Notes: generated by a model not told the origin, from the letters alone. A stretch of 64,000 nt of DNA from Gemmatimonadota bacterium (GCA_003221035.1 QHUB01000020.1:8751-72750), one strand, 5' to 3'. Positions 37,875 through 44,649 are shown, counted from the stretch's first letter. Program-made: numbers and translations.

Positions 37875-38810
37875 ATGTCGTTCGAATACACGCTGTCGCA
37901 CCGTCTCGCGCTGGTCGCGCTGGTCCTCTCATGCGTCGTGAGCTGTGAGGTCCAGCCCGGTGGACCGCCTCCGCCGGCGCCTCCGTCGTCGCCGCCCCCG
38001 CCGCCCCCGCCGCCCCCGCCCCCGCCGCCCCCGCCCCCCCCACCGGCGCCGGTCGGACGGTTTGGTCACGTGATCATCGTTGCCGAAGAGAATCACGACT
38101 ACAGCAGCGTGATCGGCAACTCGGCGATGCCCTACTTGAACGGATTGAGCACGACGTATGGTTTGGCGACGAACTACTACGCGAACGCGCATCCCTCGAT
38201 CGGGAACTACTTCGAGCTGACCGTGGGCGACACGATCATCAACAATGACGGTTTCACCGGCGCCGTTACGAACGACAACATCGTCCGCGAGCTCGTGAAG
38301 GCCGGCAAAACCTGGAAGGCGTACATCGAGGGCTATCCGTCATACGACGCGAACCATGTGCCGATGAGCTATTTCTCTGACATTCGCAATAATTCGGCGC
38401 AGGCGGCGAACATGGTGCCCTTTACGCGTTTCGCCGCCGATCTGGCGAACGGGACGCTGCCGGACTTTTCCTTCATCACGCCGAATCTCAACGACGACGC
38501 TCACAACGGGACACTGGCTGCCGCCGACAAGTGGCTCGAGACCAACATCGATCCGCTGATCCAGAGCGCGCAATTCAAGCAGGACGGTCTCTTGATCATC
38601 TGGTGGGACGAGTCCGCCAGCAGCAGCACCCACGGCGGCGGGAAGGTCGCGTGGACGGTCGTCAGCCCGTTCGCCAAGCGCGGGTATCAATCCACGACGT
38701 CGTATCAGCACCAGAGCACGTTGCGCCTGATGCTGCAGGCGCTGGGCGTATCCGCGTTTCCCGGCCAGGCCGCGACCGCGCCCGACATGAGCGAGTTCTT
38801 CAAGCCCTGA
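37875..38810 (+). CDS. Phosphoesterase/acid phosphatase (alkaline phosphatase superfamily), probable lipoprotein with a poly-Pro linker
   Basis: HVIIVAEENH, HPSIGNY, LPDFSFITPNL.DDAH, WWDE and HQSTLR; run of 18 Pro. Confidence 0.85.
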   Translation: MSFEYTLSHRLALVALVLSCVVSCEVQPGGPPPPAPPSSPPPPPPPPPPPPPPPPPPAPVGRFGHVIIVAEENHDYSSVIGNSAMPYLNGLSTTYGLATNYYANAHPSIGNYFELTVGDTIINNDGFTGAVTNDNIVRELVKAGKTWKAYIEGYPSYDANHVPMSYFSDIRNNSAQAANMVPFTRFAADLANGTLPDFSFITPNLNDDAHNGTLAAADKWLETNIDPLIQSAQFKQDGLLIIWWDESASSSTHGGGKVAWTVVSPFAKRGYQSTTSYQHQSTLRLMLQALGVSAFPGQAATAPDMSEFFKP

Positions 38811-38822
38811 GCCAATCGCAGG

Positions 38823-38851
38823 GTAGGGGCGCAGCCTCCCTGCGCCCCTAC
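38823..38851. repeat. Intergenic GTAG-family REP-like hairpin between convergent genes
   Basis: GTAGGGGCGCAG-CCTCC-CTGCGCCCCTAC; same 12-bp arms as the copy at 8341. Confidence 0.85.
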
Positions 38852-38868
38852 ATGCGCCCCGCGGGTGG

Positions 38869-39360
38869 CTACTGCACTCTCACCAACGTCCCGCGAATCT
38901 CGCCTCCGCCATGTGCTTTAGTATGGATGTTCACGTAGGCGCGTCCCTCTCGAATGATCTGAAAGATAGAGTCTGCTGCGCCGGCCGGAGCCTGGGACCC
39001 GATGGTGGCGGTTCCGGTAAAGCCCGCACCCGTCGCGGGAGGATTGAAGTTCACTTGAACGTTGCCCGCGACAGAATCGGCGGCGCGTCGGTGGATATGT
39101 CCCAGAATGATGCTGTCGATCGGCGAATCGATAATGACTTCCCAGCTGATCAAACTGTCGCTCAGGAATGTGACGGTGGCGTGACCGGTGGCTGTGGTGG
39201 TGACGGGTGTCGGCGCCTCGTTCGCACCATTCAGTGTCGCGGTGTAGACCTCCAGACCGGCGGGAAGCCCGGTCGAATTGTTATCGCTGCACGCCATGGC
39301 GATGGCGCCGACGGTCGAGACAACCGCGGCAGCCATTGTGACCGTTCGCAATACGCGCAT
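38869..39360 (-). CDS. CHRD-domain lipoprotein
   Basis: AAGGAG SD, AMAC lipobox, LNGANE.P..T.ATG, GHIH and YVNIHT...GGEIRG. Confidence 0.9.
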   Translation of the reverse strand: MRVLRTVTMAAAVVSTVGAIAMACSDNNSTGLPAGLEVYTATLNGANEAPTPVTTTATGHATVTFLSDSLISWEVIIDSPIDSIILGHIHRRAADSVAGNVQVNFNPPATGAGFTGTATIGSQAPAGAADSIFQIIREGRAYVNIHTKAHGGGEIRGTLVRVQ

Positions 39361-39417
39361 ATCTGTCTCCTTAGGCACGTAATCACAAGTGAAACTGCAC
39401 AAAGCCTCGTGAACGGG

Positions 39418-39822
39418 TTATTGAACGACGACCTTCCCGGTCATGAAGGGATGCGGCGTGCAGTGGTATGGGAATCCACCTTGCGCCGGGAAGGTATGAG
39501 AGAAGCGATCACCGGGATTCAGATCGGGCGAATTCCACACCGCGGCATCCGACGTCGTCGTGTGGGGTTCCGTGCCGGCGTCTTCGCAGTTAATCCACGT
39601 GACTGTCGCGCCTCGTGGCACGGCGAGTGAATCGGGATGAAAGCCGAAATCCCGAATCGCGATGATGTAGTGCATCGAATCGATCACCGTCACTGGCACG
39701 CGACATTCGGCCGAGGTGGTCGTGCCTGGTCCTGCGCTGCGGTCGGAAAAACACGCCAGCGCGATCGCACCGCCGCAGATGGAGCCGAACAGCAGCGAGA
39801 GAGCCTTCCGTGTGGTTGTCAT
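39418..39822 (-). CDS. Amicyanin/plastocyanin-like cupredoxin lipoprotein
   Basis: LAC lipobox; VTWIN, PHT and YHCTPHPFM type-1 copper ligands. Confidence 0.9.
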   Translation of the reverse strand: MTTTRKALSLLFGSICGGAIALACFSDRSAGPGTTTSAECRVPVTVIDSMHYIIAIRDFGFHPDSLAVPRGATVTWINCEDAGTEPHTTTSDAAVWNSPDLNPGDRFSHTFPAQGGFPYHCTPHPFMTGKVVVQ

Positions 39823-39824
39823 GG

Positions 39825-40859
39825 TCACCTCACCACCACGACGGCCTTCATGAACGGATGCGGCGTGCAGTGAAACGCATACTCGCCGGGCTGCGTGAAG
39901 GTGTGGCTCCAGCGTTTTCCCGGCTCGATCGCGCCGGAATCCCATGAGCCGTCATCGGCGGTCACGGTGTGCACGAGGGGATCGTTGTTGGTCCACGTCA
40001 CCGTCGTGCCGGCGGCGATTTCGAGCCGCTTGGGCCCGAATGCCATCGTGCGCATCTCGGAATTGACAACGGGGCCAGTCACCACACCTGTCGCGCCTGT
40101 TTGCGCCGTTTCGTGCTTTTTGCCGAAGTAGCGACTGAACGTGAAGGGGATCGTGAACTCAAACCCACCCCGCACCTTGTCGATACCGCGTGACGCTCCC
40201 TGCAGCGTCGCCGTGTTGGTGTTCGTCACCTGCAGTGAGAGCGTATGTGGGGAATAGGGAATAGCGATCTGCAGTCCCGCGCCCCACGCGGGGTCCTCAT
40301 TCGTGCGGCGATCGAGCAGCGTCGTGACGTCGCCGGCGAGCGCGAACCACCGGTTCAGGCGCACGGTCGCCCCTCCGCCAATCGCGTAACGCGTCGTGTC
40401 GCTGTGATAGCCATTGGAGAGCAGGCGCCCCACGGCCAACAGCCGCAGCTTTCCGAACGCGTGCGCGCCCGTGAGCTCGGCGTCGAAGCTCTCGGCGGCC
40501 TGGTTGTAGCCGCCCTGCAGCGCGACGCCACGCGTGCCATAGCGCGCGAAAAACTCCCACTCGTTGGGAAACGCCGCGGCCACGTCGGAGGAGGTCGCGT
40601 AGTTGAAGCCGATGAGCAACGGGAGCGGGAGCTGATAGCTGAGCAGAAACGTGGGGGAATTCGTGACTTTGCGGGTCGGCGCATCGCCGACTCCGAATCG
40701 GTGGATGAAATTGAACTGCAGCGTGCCGGGCGCGCCGAGCCAGCCGCCGGAGAGATTGGGGGACCGGTCGAGCGCGGACTGGCACGAGGCTACATCACGC
40801 GCTCCAGCCAGAGCGGTGAGGACGCAGGTGACGGATGCGATCCGACCAGGCAGGTGCAC
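39825..40859 (-). CDS. Putative outer-membrane beta-barrel (DUF5777-like) fused to a C-terminal amicyanin-like cupredoxin
   Basis: Signal peptide; LQFNFIHRFG and HTLSLQVTN motifs and amphipathic strands; C-terminal VTWTN..VHT...FHCTPHPFM. Confidence 0.75.
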   Translation of the reverse strand: MHLPGRIASVTCVLTALAGARDVASCQSALDRSPNLSGGWLGAPGTLQFNFIHRFGVGDAPTRKVTNSPTFLLSYQLPLPLLIGFNYATSSDVAAAFPNEWEFFARYGTRGVALQGGYNQAAESFDAELTGAHAFGKLRLLAVGRLLSNGYHSDTTRYAIGGGATVRLNRWFALAGDVTTLLDRRTNEDPAWGAGLQIAIPYSPHTLSLQVTNTNTATLQGASRGIDKVRGGFEFTIPFTFSRYFGKKHETAQTGATGVVTGPVVNSEMRTMAFGPKRLEIAAGTTVTWTNNDPLVHTVTADDGSWDSGAIEPGKRWSHTFTQPGEYAFHCTPHPFMKAVVVVR

Positions 40860-40869
40860 GCGGGCCTCC

Positions 40870-42153
40870 TCATGAGTGGGATGCAGCCTCGAGGCGGCGG
40901 AGCGCCGCCTCTTTGCCGACGACCGACAATAGCTCGTTCACAGGTTCCGACACCGTCCCTCCGGTCAACGCGATGCGAATCGGCTGAAACACCGCGCCGG
41001 CTTTCGCGTCTCGCCGTTGTGCCAGATTCCGCAGCACATGCTCCAGTTCTTCCGCCGTCCAGTCGTTGACCTTCTTCAAGGTCTCGAGAATCGCCGCGAG
41101 CATGTCGCGGTAGCCGGCCGGGTCCTTCGCGATTTCCTTCTGTGCTTTGTCGTCGAGCGTCACGAACTTCGCGTCGAGCCGCACCGCGACCTGCCTCGCA
41201 ACATCGAGCGTCGTGCGCGATCGTGTCTTCACTGCGGTGATCGCGCGCAGGATCGCGTCGCGGTCGCCATCGAGATCCAGCTTCGCCAGCTCCGCATGCA
41301 CGAGCGGGAACAGCTCTTCGGCGGACTTCGCCGTGAGGTACTGCCCGTTCATCCACTCCAGTTTGGTCGTGTCGAAGACGGCCGGCTTCTTCAAGATACC
41401 ATCGAGCGAGAAGAGGTTCCGGAGCTCTTCTTTGCTCATGATTTCGCGATCGCCGCCCGGACTCCATCCAAGTAGCGCGAGAAAATTGCGCATCGCTTCT
41501 GGGAGAATCCCTAGGTGTTGGTAATCCCCCACAGCCGTCGCGCCGTGTCGTTTGGAGAGTTTTTTCCCGTCGGGTCCGTGGATCATGGGCACGTGACCAA
41601 AAATTGGGGTCGCATGTCCGAGCGCTCGGTACACCGCGAGCTGCTTGGGGGTGTTGGAAATGTGATCGTCCCCGCGAATCACGTGCGTCACCTGCATGTC
41701 GATGTCGTCGACGACCACCGCGAAGTTGTAGAGCGGCGAGCGATCCGACCGCAAAATCACAAAATCGCGAATATCCTCACCTTTGAAGCTGATCTTGCCG
41801 TGGACCGCGTCGTCCCAGGCCAGCTCGCCGGGGGGGACGCGCAGCCGGATCGCGTCCTCCTCCATGTACGCTTTGCCTTCTTTCAGCAATTGATCGGCCA
41901 CCTGCTGGTGACGCGCCAGGCGGGCGCCCTGGAAGATCGGGGCTTCGTCCCAATCCAAGCCGAGCCAGGTGAGGCCGTCGAGGATGACCTGGGTGTGTTC
42001 GTCGGTGGAACGCGCCTTGTCGGTGTCTTCGATCCGGAGCAGGAACTGGCCGCCCTCTTTGCGGGCAAACAGCCAGTTGAAGAGGGCGGTGCGGGCGCCG
42101 CCGACGTGGAGGTAGCCGGTGGGCGACGGGGCGAAGCGGACGCGGATACTCAT
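40870..42153 (-). CDS. gltX: Glutamate--tRNA ligase
   Basis: RFAPSPTGYLHVGG, LRIEDTD, HVIRGDDH, KLSKR and an anticodon-binding domain. Confidence 0.96.
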   Translation of the reverse strand: MSIRVRFAPSPTGYLHVGGARTALFNWLFARKEGGQFLLRIEDTDKARSTDEHTQVILDGLTWLGLDWDEAPIFQGARLARHQQVADQLLKEGKAYMEEDAIRLRVPPGELAWDDAVHGKISFKGEDIRDFVILRSDRSPLYNFAVVVDDIDMQVTHVIRGDDHISNTPKQLAVYRALGHATPIFGHVPMIHGPDGKKLSKRHGATAVGDYQHLGILPEAMRNFLALLGWSPGGDREIMSKEELRNLFSLDGILKKPAVFDTTKLEWMNGQYLTAKSAEELFPLVHAELAKLDLDGDRDAILRAITAVKTRSRTTLDVARQVAVRLDAKFVTLDDKAQKEIAKDPAGYRDMLAAILETLKKVNDWTAEELEHVLRNLAQRRDAKAGAVFQPIRIALTGGTVSEPVNELLSVVGKEAALRRLEAASHS

Positions 42154-42240
42154 CGGCCAATAATAGAGCGTTCATGAAGCCTTCGGAAATCCTTCATGGT
42201 GGAAGTCCGATGCTTGCTCCACCCTTTCCCGAGGATCTCG

Positions 42241-43632
42241 ATGCCGCTTCTCGTACCGCTGCTGCTCGTGGGACTCACGACCCCCCCACCCCGAGTCGCC
42301 ACGACTGGCGTCCCTGACCGGGTGCGGGCATATGACGCCATCTACGCCGTCGTCCGGACCAAGCTGGGCATTCCGAGCTTTTCCCGCCAAACCGGTCTCG
42401 CGTGCAACGTCTGTCACACCGCGTTTCCGATGCTCACCGCCTTCGGCCGCCAGTTCAAGCTCAACGCCTACACGTTGACCGGATTGCAGACGATCGGACC
42501 CACCGAGACGACGCCTTCGCCGCTCAAGATCAACCTCATTCCGCCGGTCTCGACGATGCTGCAGACGTCGTTCACCCAGACATCCAAGGCGCAGCCCGGC
42601 ACGCAGAACGGCAACGTGGAGTTCCCGCAGGAATTGAGCGTCTTCTTCGGCGAGGCGATCTCGCCGCGGCTGGGAACGTTCATCCAGATCACGTATGACG
42701 GAGCGGAGGGAACGCTGGGGGTCGACAACATCGATCTCCGCTACGCGAACCACGCCAAGGTCCTGTCCAAGCGGACGATTTACGGAATCACCGTCAACAA
42801 CAGCCCGACCGTGCAGGATGTGTGGAACTCGACGCCAGTGTGGGGATTTCCGTTCGGTTCATCGGGCGTCGCCCCCACTCCCAGCGGATCCCCGTTGATC
42901 AATGAAGGATTGGCGCAGAGCGTCGCCGGGATCGGGACCTACGCGCTGTGGGACGACCATCTCTACGGCGAGGTGTCGGTCTACCGCTCCTCGCCGCAGG
43001 GCGGCCCCCATCCCCCGGACGCGACCTCGACCGGGATCATGAAGGGCGTGACGCCCTATTGGCGGCTCGCCTACCAGCGGACGTTCGGGACGCAGTACAT
43101 CGAGCTGGGGACGTTCGGCATGGCATCGCAGTTGTATCCCACCGGCGTCACGGGACCCACCGACCATTTCAGCGACGTGGGTGCCGATCTGCAATACGAA
43201 CGTCACGCAGGGAAAAATGGCGCGGGGACGTTCGTCGTCCACGCGAGCTATATCGATGAGCGCCAGACGCTCGATGCCAGCTTTGGCGGCGGAGCGTCTG
43301 CCAATGCCAAAAACACCCTGAACACCGTGCGGGCTGATGCGGCGTGGCTGACGCCGACGCGCTGGGGCGGCTCGGTCGGCGTCTTCAACACGAGTGGCAC
43401 CGCCGACACGCTGCTGTATGCCCCGGGCGCGGTCACGGGTAACGCAACCGGAAAACCCAACAGCAACGGCGTGATCGCCGAACTGCAGTTCATGCCGTGG
43501 ATCAACACCCGGTTCTCGCTGCAGTATGTGGCGTATCAAAAGTTCAACGGCGGCACGAGCGACTACGACGGCGCAGGGCGCAGCGCGTCAGCCAACAACA
43601 CCGTCTACGCACTCGTGTGGTTGATGTTCTAG
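42241..43632 (+). CDS. cyc2: Cyc2-like monoheme cytochrome c-porin fusion (outer membrane)
   Basis: PSFSRQTGLACNVCHTAFPMLTAFGRQFKLNAY matches the Cyc2 N-terminal signature; beta-strand-rich remainder ending in Phe. GAGGA SD before ATG 42241 (ATG 42196 is an alternative). Confidence 0.85.
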   Translation: MPLLVPLLLVGLTTPPPRVATTGVPDRVRAYDAIYAVVRTKLGIPSFSRQTGLACNVCHTAFPMLTAFGRQFKLNAYTLTGLQTIGPTETTPSPLKINLIPPVSTMLQTSFTQTSKAQPGTQNGNVEFPQELSVFFGEAISPRLGTFIQITYDGAEGTLGVDNIDLRYANHAKVLSKRTIYGITVNNSPTVQDVWNSTPVWGFPFGSSGVAPTPSGSPLINEGLAQSVAGIGTYALWDDHLYGEVSVYRSSPQGGPHPPDATSTGIMKGVTPYWRLAYQRTFGTQYIELGTFGMASQLYPTGVTGPTDHFSDVGADLQYERHAGKNGAGTFVVHASYIDERQTLDASFGGGASANAKNTLNTVRADAAWLTPTRWGGSVGVFNTSGTADTLLYAPGAVTGNATGKPNSNGVIAELQFMPWINTRFSLQYVAYQKFNGGTSDYDGAGRSASANNTVYALVWLMF

Positions 43633-43653
43633 CAGCGGCGGGAACCGAAGGAC

Positions 43654-43706
43654 CAATGTCCAATGATCATTGATCGATGATCATTGGACATTGATCATTG
43701 GACATT
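43654..43706. repeat. Heptamer-repeat palindrome, probable bidirectional terminator
   Basis: CAATGTC CAATGAT CATTGAT CGATGAT CATTGGA CATTGAT CATTGGA; perfect 16-bp stem 43655-43670/43677-43692 between convergent cyc2 and tRNA-Ser. Confidence 0.75.
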
Positions 43707-43714
43707 CTTTGGCA

Positions 43715-43805
43715 CGGAGGAGGGGGGATTCGAACCCCCGATAGGGTTTTAAGGCCCTATAACGGTTTAGCAAACCGCCGCCTTCAGCCACTCGGCCACC
43801 CCTCC
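43715..43805 (-). tRNA. tRNA-Ser(GCT)
   Basis: GGAGGGG acceptor, TGGCCGAGTGG D-arm, GCGGT-TTGCTAA-ACCGT anticodon arm, long variable arm, GGTTCGAATCC; CCA not adjacent to the discriminator. Confidence 0.95.
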
Positions 43806-43905
43806 CGGGGGTGAATTATCCCCGGACGAGCCTCATGGAGCAAGGACCAAAGGACAATTGAGAAGAACGCGGGCCGGCGGTTACAATCGGGCGATGGAGA
43901 AAAAC

Positions 43906-44649
43906 ATGAGCGCCTGCCTCCTGGCCCTGATTGCCGTCGCCCTGTCGTTCCCTATGGTCGCCGCCGCGCAACATCCGCATTGGGAGTACGAGGGAGAACA
44001 CGGGCCGACGCATTGGGGGAGTCTCGATCCCGCGTTCCACGCCTGCGATGCGGGTAAGCACCAATCTCCGATTCCCATCAACGACCCAACGTCCAAGGAC
44101 CTCCCCGCGATCGAGTTTTCCTACCAGGCCACGCCGCTAAAAATCATCGACAACGGGCACACGATTCAGGTGACCTACGCGCCCGGCAGCTTCATCACCG
44201 TGAATCATCACAAGTACGAGCTGCAACAATTTCACTTCCATCATCCAAGCGAAGAGGAAGTGAACGGCAGATCATATCCCGTCGTGGCGCATCTGGTGCA
44301 CAAGGATTCCACCGGAAAGCTTGCCGTGGTCGCCGTGCTGCTCGATGAAGGCAAGGCGAACGAGGTCATCCAGGCCATCTGGACCCACCTCCCGGAAGAG
44401 CAGGGCAAGGAGGTCGAACGCGTCGGCCTGACCGTAGACGCGACGAAACTGCTCCCGGCGAGAGGCGGCTACTACACATTCACCGGATCACTCACGACGC
44501 CGCCGTGCACGGAAGGCGTGACCTGGTTCGTCTTGAAGACCCCGTCGCAAATCTCCGGCGACGAGATCGCCGTGTTCGCAAAGCATTATCCGCACAACGC
44601 TCGGCCACTGCAGGCCGTCAATCGCCGCACGATCGTGATGTCGCACTAG
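43906..44649 (+). CDS. Alpha-class carbonic anhydrase, periplasmic
   Basis: HWEYEG..GP.HWG, QSPI, NGHT, QFHFHHPSE, HLVH, GSLTTPPCTEGV and NARPLQ. GGAGA SD (ATG 43894 is an alternative). Confidence 0.95.
   Translation: MSACLLALIAVALSFPMVAAAQHPHWEYEGEHGPTHWGSLDPAFHACDAGKHQSPIPINDPTSKDLPAIEFSYQATPLKIIDNGHTIQVTYAPGSFITVNHHKYELQQFHFHHPSEEEVNGRSYPVVAHLVHKDSTGKLAVVAVLLDEGKANEVIQAIWTHLPEEQGKEVERVGLTVDATKLLPARGGYYTFTGSLTTPPCTEGVTWFVLKTPSQISGDEIAVFAKHYPHNARPLQAVNRRTIVMSH

Follow-up and report, generated by a model that had tools for sequence, protein, structure and literature searches.

A Cyc2-like cytochrome-porin beside a barrel-cupredoxin operon in a Gemmatimonadota genome: probably two separate envelope redox modules

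Genes of the locus

We analysed a locus at positions 38869-43632 of a 64,000-nucleotide stretch of DNA (hereafter the window) from a Gemmatimonadota bacterium (GCA_003221035.1 QHUB01000020.1:8751-72750), in which a gene for a Cyc2-like cytochrome-porin stands beside genes for copper proteins of the cell envelope. The source, a soil bacterium, has a genome of 3.36 Mb that is 98.67% complete, with its closest protein relatives in the Gemmatimonadales. Four of the genes lie on the minus strand in the order gltX (40870-42153), a gene for a barrel-cupredoxin fusion of 344 residues that we call BARCUP (39825-40859), one for a small cupredoxin that we call CUP (39418-39945, likely start 39822) and one for a CHRD-domain protein (38869-39402, likely start 39360). 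The Cyc2-like gene, hereafter cyc2, lies on the plus strand (open reading frame (ORF) 42196-43632, start Met at 42241), divergent from gltX across an 87-nt spacer, with GAGGA preceding its ATG. All five genes are what, and where, an earlier note on this DNA had described, as judged from Pfam, TIGR00464 and family alignments, including the Cyc2-like start, which matches that of the homologues.

The gaps between the four minus-strand genes measure 10, 2 and 57 nt: BARCUP starts 10 nt after the gltX stop codon, CUP starts 2 nt past the BARCUP stop, and the CHRD gene comes last. With so little space between the gltX stop and the BARCUP start, a single operon of all four genes is probable; another genome of the genus (G047, locus L003) shows the same 10 nt. 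The head gene is a true glutamyl-tRNA synthetase gene (TIGR00464, E 4.7e-145, 484.1 bits against a cut-off of 289.95, matched in two stretches) and the sole copy found in the genome. Its product has 427 residues and no counterpart for some 45 positions of the model (about 96-141). It is unusual to find a housekeeping synthetase gene at the head of an operon for envelope copper proteins. A link of gltX to the provision of haem by way of Glu-tRNA is conceivable, but we do not adopt it.

A probable Cyc2-superfamily protein of a distinct subfamily

Cyc2 is the main genomic marker for inferring iron oxidation. The window protein counts 463 residues from Met 42241, the start common to its homologues (478 residues for the whole ORF), and has a signal peptide as judged by eye. 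Its haem region reads PSFSRQT-GLA-CNVCH-TAF-PML, of which PSFSRQT is encoded at 42373-42393 and CNVCH, residues 70-74 of the 478-residue ORF, at 42403-42417, both on the plus strand. CNVCH holds the only cysteines after Met 42241 and is invariant in the 17 aligned family members, which share the block IPSF[S/T/A]RQTGLxCxxCHxxFPxL together with a C-terminal aromatic residue. No match to the protein was found in Pfam, NCBIfam or the sequences of the PDB, and an Atlas search returned only clusters named 'cytochrome c family protein', all from Gemmatimonadota; the family comprises 2674 proteins at E<=1e-3 among 8000 candidates scored.

The excerpts of Keffer et al. 2021 (PMC8406198) that define Cyc2 give as its criteria a single CXXCH, an upstream PXFAR[Q/K][T/Y], a PXL motif 4 residues downstream, a 16-strand porin like OprO or OprP and a length of at least 365 residues. 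The earlier note had seen a Cyc2 signature here, and most of it holds: the CXXCH is single, the PXL motif is present as PML (P78 and L80 are invariant in the alignment) and the model is a 16-strand porin. The exception is the upstream motif, in which PSFSRQT agrees at five of the six specified positions and has Ser for Ala. This replacement is usual in the family, with FSR in 14/17 members, FTR in 2/17 and FAR in 1/17, and the strict motif filter, as worded in those excerpts (PMC8406198), would drop the window protein and most of its relatives. The AlphaFold model has a predicted local distance difference test score (pLDDT) of 55.2, falling to about 30 in the haem region, and 16 DSSP strands at residues 119-477. 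The barrel matches 16-strand porins, among them Omp32 (Z 22.0) and OprP (2o4v, Z 21.8, root-mean-square deviation (rmsd) 3.5 over 307 aligned residues), tied with others. On this model the protein would sit in the outer membrane as one c-type haem fused to a 16-strand porin.

The same genome encodes on another contig a canonical Cyc2 of 467 residues, which reads PAFARKY-GLR-CSACH-TVW-PEL. In their haem regions the two proteins share 52% identity over 52 residues (E 4e-14) and the same spacing from motif to CXXCH; outside this region, BLASTP found nothing significant between them, the next-best segment having an E of 0.24. From its sequence, the window protein appears to be a member of the Cyc2 superfamily, of a distinct subfamily, that misses the strict published motif by one residue. 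It resembles the Cyc2 proteins of Acidithiobacillus ferrooxidans and Mariprofundus ferrooxydans (Cyc2PV-1), as the same excerpts portray them, in its signal peptide, one N-terminal CXXCH, PXL, about 460 residues and 16 predicted strands, and OprP is also the structural relative named there for Cyc2 (PMC8406198). It differs from characterised Cyc2 in the Ser within the FAR core and in that no cytochrome, cupredoxin or oxidase gene adjoins it in the window clade. Cyc2 homologues as such are not new to the phylum: they are described, in the part of the source that covers them, as widely annotated in marine Gemmatimonadota metagenome-assembled genomes (MAGs) (PMC11316326).

BARCUP, a barrel with a tethered type-1 copper domain

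The beta-barrel with a fused type-1 copper domain that the earlier note had recognised is borne out by the AlphaFold model of BARCUP (pLDDT 80.0), which shows 12 strands (residues 46-240), a linker modelled at low confidence (246-260) and then a cupredoxin (264-343). We delimit the barrel to residues of about 27-245 (nt 40125-40781, minus strand) and the copper domain to residues 262-344 (nt 39828-40076, minus strand), preceded by a tether of about 25 residues. The Copper-bind family (PF00127) matches residues 267-343 (E 5.7e-13, 49.6 bits against a cut-off of 21.2). The copper ligands H297, C331, H334 and M337, the last three in the loop CTPHPFM, are invariant in all 22 aligned BARCUP sequences, which are 37-85% identical to the window protein. 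A full His-Cys-His-Met set in the amicyanin loop CTPHPFM is the mark of an electron-transfer site. The best C-terminal fold matches are a Nitrosopumilus cupredoxin (5fc9, Z 12.7, rmsd 1.7, 79 aligned) and amicyanin (1aac, Z 11.2), and both BARCUP and CUP share with amicyanin and plastocyanin (PF00127) the cupredoxin fold and the ligand set in this loop. The likeness to amicyanin is one of fold and loop only: BARCUP and CUP score 52.3 and 50.4 bits against the equivalog cut-off of 110.2 for amicyanin proper (TIGR02657), there is no methylamine dehydrogenase context, and BARCUP is fused to an outer-membrane barrel while CUP is probably lipid-anchored.

In outer-membrane barrels with an even number of strands, both termini point into the periplasm, and on this rule the copper domain behind the 12-strand barrel of BARCUP would be periplasmic. 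BARCUP itself, which begins with a putative signal peptide, is probably not a lipoprotein, since the Cys before its mature QS falls on the Ala/Gly of the signal-peptidase-I site AxA|QS in the homologues. Its barrel finds its closest folds in FapF (Z 17.9), KdgM (Z 17.7, rmsd 2.3, 163 aligned), the COG4313 channel (Z 17.0) and NanC (Z 16.7), with LpxR (Z 15.4), OMPLA (Z 11.8) and the copper transporter PcoB lower down. The barrel is a divergent relative, a sister group, of DUF5777 (PF19089). At 15.2 bits, with a cut-off of 23.1 (E 0.013, model positions 153-247), the window protein is not a member by Pfam's rule. Sub-threshold matches (E<=5) to the C-terminal third of the model recur in 13 of the 22 BARCUP members, 24 of the 30 nearest clusters in an Atlas feature search are DUF5777, and P0313, a representative of the family, clears the cut-off with 30.5 bits. 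Searched without the cupredoxin, the barrel gave no Pfam match at E<=0.001.

When 1.84 billion proteins were searched with a barrel-only profile, no more than 368 cluster representatives came up at E<=1e-3, a small group which, unlike DUF5777, is mostly fused to cupredoxins. Among the best 150 of these 368, a cupredoxin follows the barrel in 70, the protein ends at the barrel in 41 (many of them fragments), another or a truncated extension follows in 36, and in 3 a CXXCH domain, a class-I cytochrome c according to Pfam, stands at the position of the cupredoxin. This swap of cupredoxin for cytochrome c on the same barrel is our main reason for reading the tethered domain as an electron carrier and not as a copper chaperone. 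BARCUP relatives are abundant in soil metagenomes (1792 at E<=1e-3 among 8000 candidates scored), and literature searches, judged by titles and the openings of abstracts, brought up no paper on DUF5777 and, among the papers listed, none on a fusion of an outer-membrane barrel with a cupredoxin. In one relative of 1045 residues (P0246), a TonB-dependent receptor precedes the barrel-cupredoxin in one frame, as either a true fusion or two merged gene calls.

CUP and the CHRD-domain protein

CUP matches Copper-bind (PF00127) with E 2.9e-9 and 37.7 bits against the cut-off of 21.2. It is a small amicyanin-like type-1 copper protein, and its ten aligned homologues all retain a lipobox cysteine (C24), two further cysteines (C40 and C79) and the copper ligands H87, C121, H124 and M127. 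The CHRD protein matches its family (PF07452) over the whole model (positions 1-117 of 117, E 3e-20, 73.7 bits against 24.1), with Cys24, H88-I-H90, N144-x-H146 and GEIRG invariant in 4/4 homologues; against the sequences of the PDB it gave a single row at chance level (E 0.061). The earlier note had called both proteins lipoproteins. We hold this to be probable in each case, because an invariant Cys follows a hydrophobic leader, which in the CHRD protein ends A-M-A-C. The CHRD gene is missing at this position in four related loci (L048, L125, L127 and L128), and two of these (L127 and L128) lack CUP as well.

The cyc2 gene is an accessory insert at a tRNA-Ser(GCT)/gltX site

We scanned named genome records for relatives of the window cyc2 and obtained 14 closest loci (L043-L056, cyc2 57-95% identical) and 63 more distant ones (42-62%). 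Among the former, gltX adjoins cyc2 in ten, directly upstream in nine and with about 2.2 kb between in L045; the contigs of L044 and L049 end before gltX, and L052 and L053 have no gltX. Six of these ten loci (L043, L045, L047, L048, L055 and L056) run on into BARCUP and three stop at contig ends. The full order CHRD-CUP-BARCUP-gltX|cyc2 is kept in L043, L045, L047, L055 and L056, as in the window, and in L048 without CHRD. The locus L054 reads tRNA-cyc2-gltX and then passes directly to further housekeeping genes, without BARCUP, CUP or CHRD. Beyond this clade the proposed link between cyc2 and the copper operon fails, in line with the refuting condition that the earlier note had set for it: neither BARCUP nor gltX occurs within 7 kb of cyc2 at any of the 63 more distant loci.

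On its other side, cyc2 is flanked by a gene for tRNA-Ser(GCT) (43715-43805, minus strand, ARAGORN), and the same tRNA flanks it in all ten of the close loci scanned in which a tRNA was found (L043, L044, L046-L050 and L054-L056). The gene lies between tRNA-Ser(GCT) and gltX in the window, L043, L046-L048, L050 and L054-L056, and the tRNA abuts gltX directly in L003, L004 and L123-L128. A sample of 401 genomes of the family includes 17 of one genus (g1, the source among them), of which 7 have this cyc2 as against 16 with BARCUP. In six of the seven (G000, which is the source, G113, G199, G254, G342 and G353) cyc2 and BARCUP lie 1.4-1.5 kb apart on one contig, and in the seventh (G383) the contigs break inside gltX. 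Seven out of seven cyc2-less members examined (G047, G162, G228, G277, G298, G315 and G363) keep tRNA-Ser(GCT)-gltX-BARCUP with an empty site; G228 has a different cyc2 (52% identical) elsewhere, with a SoxE-type cupredoxin directly downstream (L129). The window cyc2 is a single-gene presence/absence polymorphism, an accessory insert, at the tRNA-Ser(GCT)/gltX site, BARCUP occurs in almost every member of the genus and is linked to gltX, and the linkage of cyc2 to the copper operon is confined to one shallow clade. A first sample of 101 genomes had suggested that the adjacency was unique to the source genome; the named-record scan and the 401-genome sample identify this as a sampling artefact.

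Co-occurrence and partners across the family

Of the 401 genomes, 47 have both cyc2 and BARCUP, 42 cyc2 only, 105 BARCUP only (101 without four genomes flagged as unpublished: G014, G068, G187 and G373) and 207 neither. Outside the genus, 39 genomes have both genes; among the matches listed, the two share a contig only in G268 (21 kb apart), G010 (110 kb) and G188 (172 kb).

The partners of the two genes differ. We scanned 150 ORFs near BARCUP in 18 relatives and found no match to c-type cytochrome or oxidase families; the neighbours included CUP-like genes, AraC-type regulators (5 loci), one CHRD and one heavy-metal P-type ATPase, and there were Ig-domain proteins with two or three cupredoxin domains and Big_2 (L009, L010) or with one cupredoxin and Big_1 (L014, L015). 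Around 18 orthologues of cyc2, Pfam found a SoxE-type cupredoxin directly downstream in five loci, an adjacent small monohaem cytochrome c in five and DUF6789 nearby in five. In the 63 more distant loci, tblastn found within 1.5 kb a small cytochrome c in 21, SoxE in 3 and a weak match to a dihaem cytochrome (28-30% identical) in 4. In this family cyc2 usually comes with a small periplasmic carrier of its own. DUF6789, a family of small membrane proteins, recurs at the pair of cyc2 and small cytochrome c (L023, L034-L038, L040 and many of L057-L119; 8 of 77 loci by tblastn) and may be an unrecognised third component of that module.

One chain or two modules

We favour the reading that the locus contains two distinct redox modules of the envelope, whose proximity is a matter of descent, and not a demonstrated unit, and give it a probability of about 0.6. 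By analogy with Cyc2, the cytochrome-porin would, at the outer membrane, accept electrons one at a time from Fe(II) in solution or some other small reductant and would hand them inward to a periplasmic one-electron carrier. The second module would be the operon gltX-BARCUP-CUP-CHRD, in which the BARCUP barrel would tether its amicyanin-like copper domain in the periplasm and the lipid-anchored CUP, a copper domain of the same kind, would exchange electrons with that domain; most likely, the two act as a one-electron relay on the periplasmic side of the outer membrane, independent of Cyc2. In strains that bear cyc2, the copper proteins could act as its acceptor. In this scheme we infer the direction of electron flow, the periplasmic place of the C-terminal domain of BARCUP and Fe(II) as substrate.

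Several observations weigh against this separation. Co-occurrence of the two genes, which the earlier note had proposed to look for across relatives, exceeds chance (47 genomes against 33.7 expected, odds ratio 2.2, nominal Fisher p 0.0013), and the excess persists without the genus g1 (39/42/97/206, odds ratio 2.0); both figures ignore kinship, and the p-values overstate the case because the sampled genomes are kin. The adjacency is not limited to the source genome either, as it is seen in six genomes of the 401, in G383 across a contig break, and in L043 and L048 (cyc2 68-95% identical). Moreover, tblastn found no cytochrome c or SoxE within 1.5 kb in any of the 14 closest cyc2 loci, against 28 of the 63 distant ones. 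With no carrier of its own at these loci, CUP and BARCUP are the nearest candidate acceptors where present, which keeps the idea of a haem-copper chain alive for the window clade. Lastly, the BARCUP barrel is probably more than a passive anchor, given how many of its polar residues are invariant: H53, R54, N99, E100, D177, H205, N119, R145, S208 and N213, along with W192, in the 22 aligned sequences.

The first of the alternatives, close to what the earlier note had put forward, is a single trans-envelope chain in which the Cyc2-like haem reduces CUP, the BARCUP copper domain or both, and so feeds a respiratory chain, for example one of Fe(II) oxidation that supplements a heterotrophic life. 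Besides the co-occurrence and the want of another adjoining carrier, it is consistent with the gene order kept in several close loci and with the cupredoxin that other clades place directly downstream of this cyc2 family. Respiration of the Fe(II) type is plausible in an organism which has, elsewhere in its genome, an aa3-type oxidase operon headed by canonical Cyc2, and a heterotroph fits with the result that no match to the RuBisCO large subunit was found in the genome. We nevertheless consider a single chain unlikely. The cyc2 gene is divergent from the operon with the housekeeping gltX between them, the operon is kept in 9 of the 17 genus genomes without this cyc2, 105 of the 152 BARCUP-bearing genomes of the family have no cyc2 match, and conversely L054 has cyc2 without the operon. 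CUP and CHRD are lost in some cyc2-less relatives (L127 and L128), and synteny within a genus is expected from descent alone. What stands of the haem and blue-copper chain is that the cyc2 family does pair with a cupredoxin (5/18 and 3/63 loci, and L129); that cupredoxin is SoxE and a different one from those of the window, where the linkage is limited to the clade.

One might speculate further that BARCUP is the copper counterpart of Cyc2, forming with CUP an undescribed blue-copper relay which, where cyc2 adjoins, accepts electrons from the haem porin and lets a heterotroph gain energy from Fe(II) or another metal. We regard this wider proposal as quite doubtful. If BARCUP were the true acceptor of Cyc2, or an oxidase itself, a copper-based route would be added to extracellular electron exchange.

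A variant that we think very unlikely makes the barrel itself catalytic or substrate-gating, for instance for Fe(II), Mn(II) or Cu(I), with the copper domain as its built-in acceptor, so that BARCUP would do without a haem porin. The invariant polar residues agree with it, 12-strand barrels include both channels (KdgM, NanC) and enzymes (LpxR, OMPLA), the redox domain is interchangeable between cupredoxin and cytochrome c, and BARCUP is widely kept without cyc2. Yet these residues are placed by sequence alignment, the BARCUP neighbourhoods give no clue to a substrate, and the long disordered tether would fit a mobile carrier equally well. Finally, a role of the operon in copper handling, with the barrel as an outer-membrane copper channel and the cupredoxins binding copper or delivering it to periplasmic enzymes, might draw on the alignment of the barrel to PcoB (Z 11.3, rmsd 4.0, 169 aligned, with 22 other chains ranking higher), the heavy-metal P-type ATPase near the barrel gene of one relative (L020) and the invariant His of CHRD and barrel, but is improbable in view of the full ligand sets of both copper domains (22/22 BARCUP, 10/10 CUP), the cytochrome c at the same position in 3 of the best 150 barrel relatives, and the 17 of 18 BARCUP neighbourhoods without a copper-resistance or transport family.

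The Gemmatimonadales subfamily to which the window cyc2 belongs narrowly fails the published motif filter, and a one-gene insert that comes and goes within a genus calls for care in deducing iron oxidation from the presence of cyc2 or from its neighbours. We see more originality in the blue-copper protein tethered to a barrel and in its lipid-anchored partner. The occasional exchange of the copper domain for cytochrome c on this barrel suggests an as yet unstudied means of positioning one-electron carriers at the outer membrane.

Other redox loci of the genome

A far better candidate for an iron-oxidation locus than the window is the rus-like cluster on another contig (locus L041; G000 contig C85, 273-7024, minus strand), which comprises the canonical Cyc2, a dihaem cytochrome c, a CarboxypepD_reg-domain protein, COX2, COX1 and two COX3. 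The excerpts of bioRxiv 10.1101/2020.03.01.968255 give the rus operon of Acidithiobacillus as cyc2-cyc1-ORF-coxBACD-rus and already report variants of the L041 type for Gemmatimonadetes MAGs. The window recalls the Acidithiobacillus operon in the idea of Cyc2 feeding a blue-copper carrier, and its genome has a true rus-like cluster. It departs from that operon in that its own cyc2 is a distinct paralogue that stands alone, without oxidase or cytochrome genes, and in that the neighbouring cupredoxins are amicyanin-like and not rusticyanin. The only SoxE/sulfocyanin-like cupredoxin of the genome (locus L122; G000 contig C96, 1117-1929, plus strand) has a TonB-dependent receptor on one side and a haem-less phosphate-type porin on the other and adjoins neither of the two cyc2 genes.

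Transcript libraries and flanking genes

A scan of 38700-44000 yielded one promoter-like site (0.9 expected) and seven terminator-like sites (3.9 expected), none of them informative for operon structure. Window DNA is present in soil metagenome runs from 15 studies. Contigs from RNA libraries (two soil runs of one study) cover CHRD, the CHRD/CUP junction and gltX, with none on cyc2 or the body of BARCUP; such libraries may contain DNA, and these contigs can neither rank genes nor show absence, a single transcript or co-transcription.

Downstream of the operon, a gene for a protein of the phosphoesterase family, whose signal peptide is followed by a stretch of some 30 prolines (37875-38810, plus strand), is missing at this position in G047 (L003), of the same genus. 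Just past tRNA-Ser(GCT) lies a gene for an alpha-carbonic anhydrase with a signal peptide (43858-44649, plus strand), for which tblastn gave no match in any related locus searched, and which thus appears to be another insertion beside this tRNA, specific to the strain. The depth of DNA in the metagenome contigs spikes at this tRNA gene, because the tRNA is common to many organisms.

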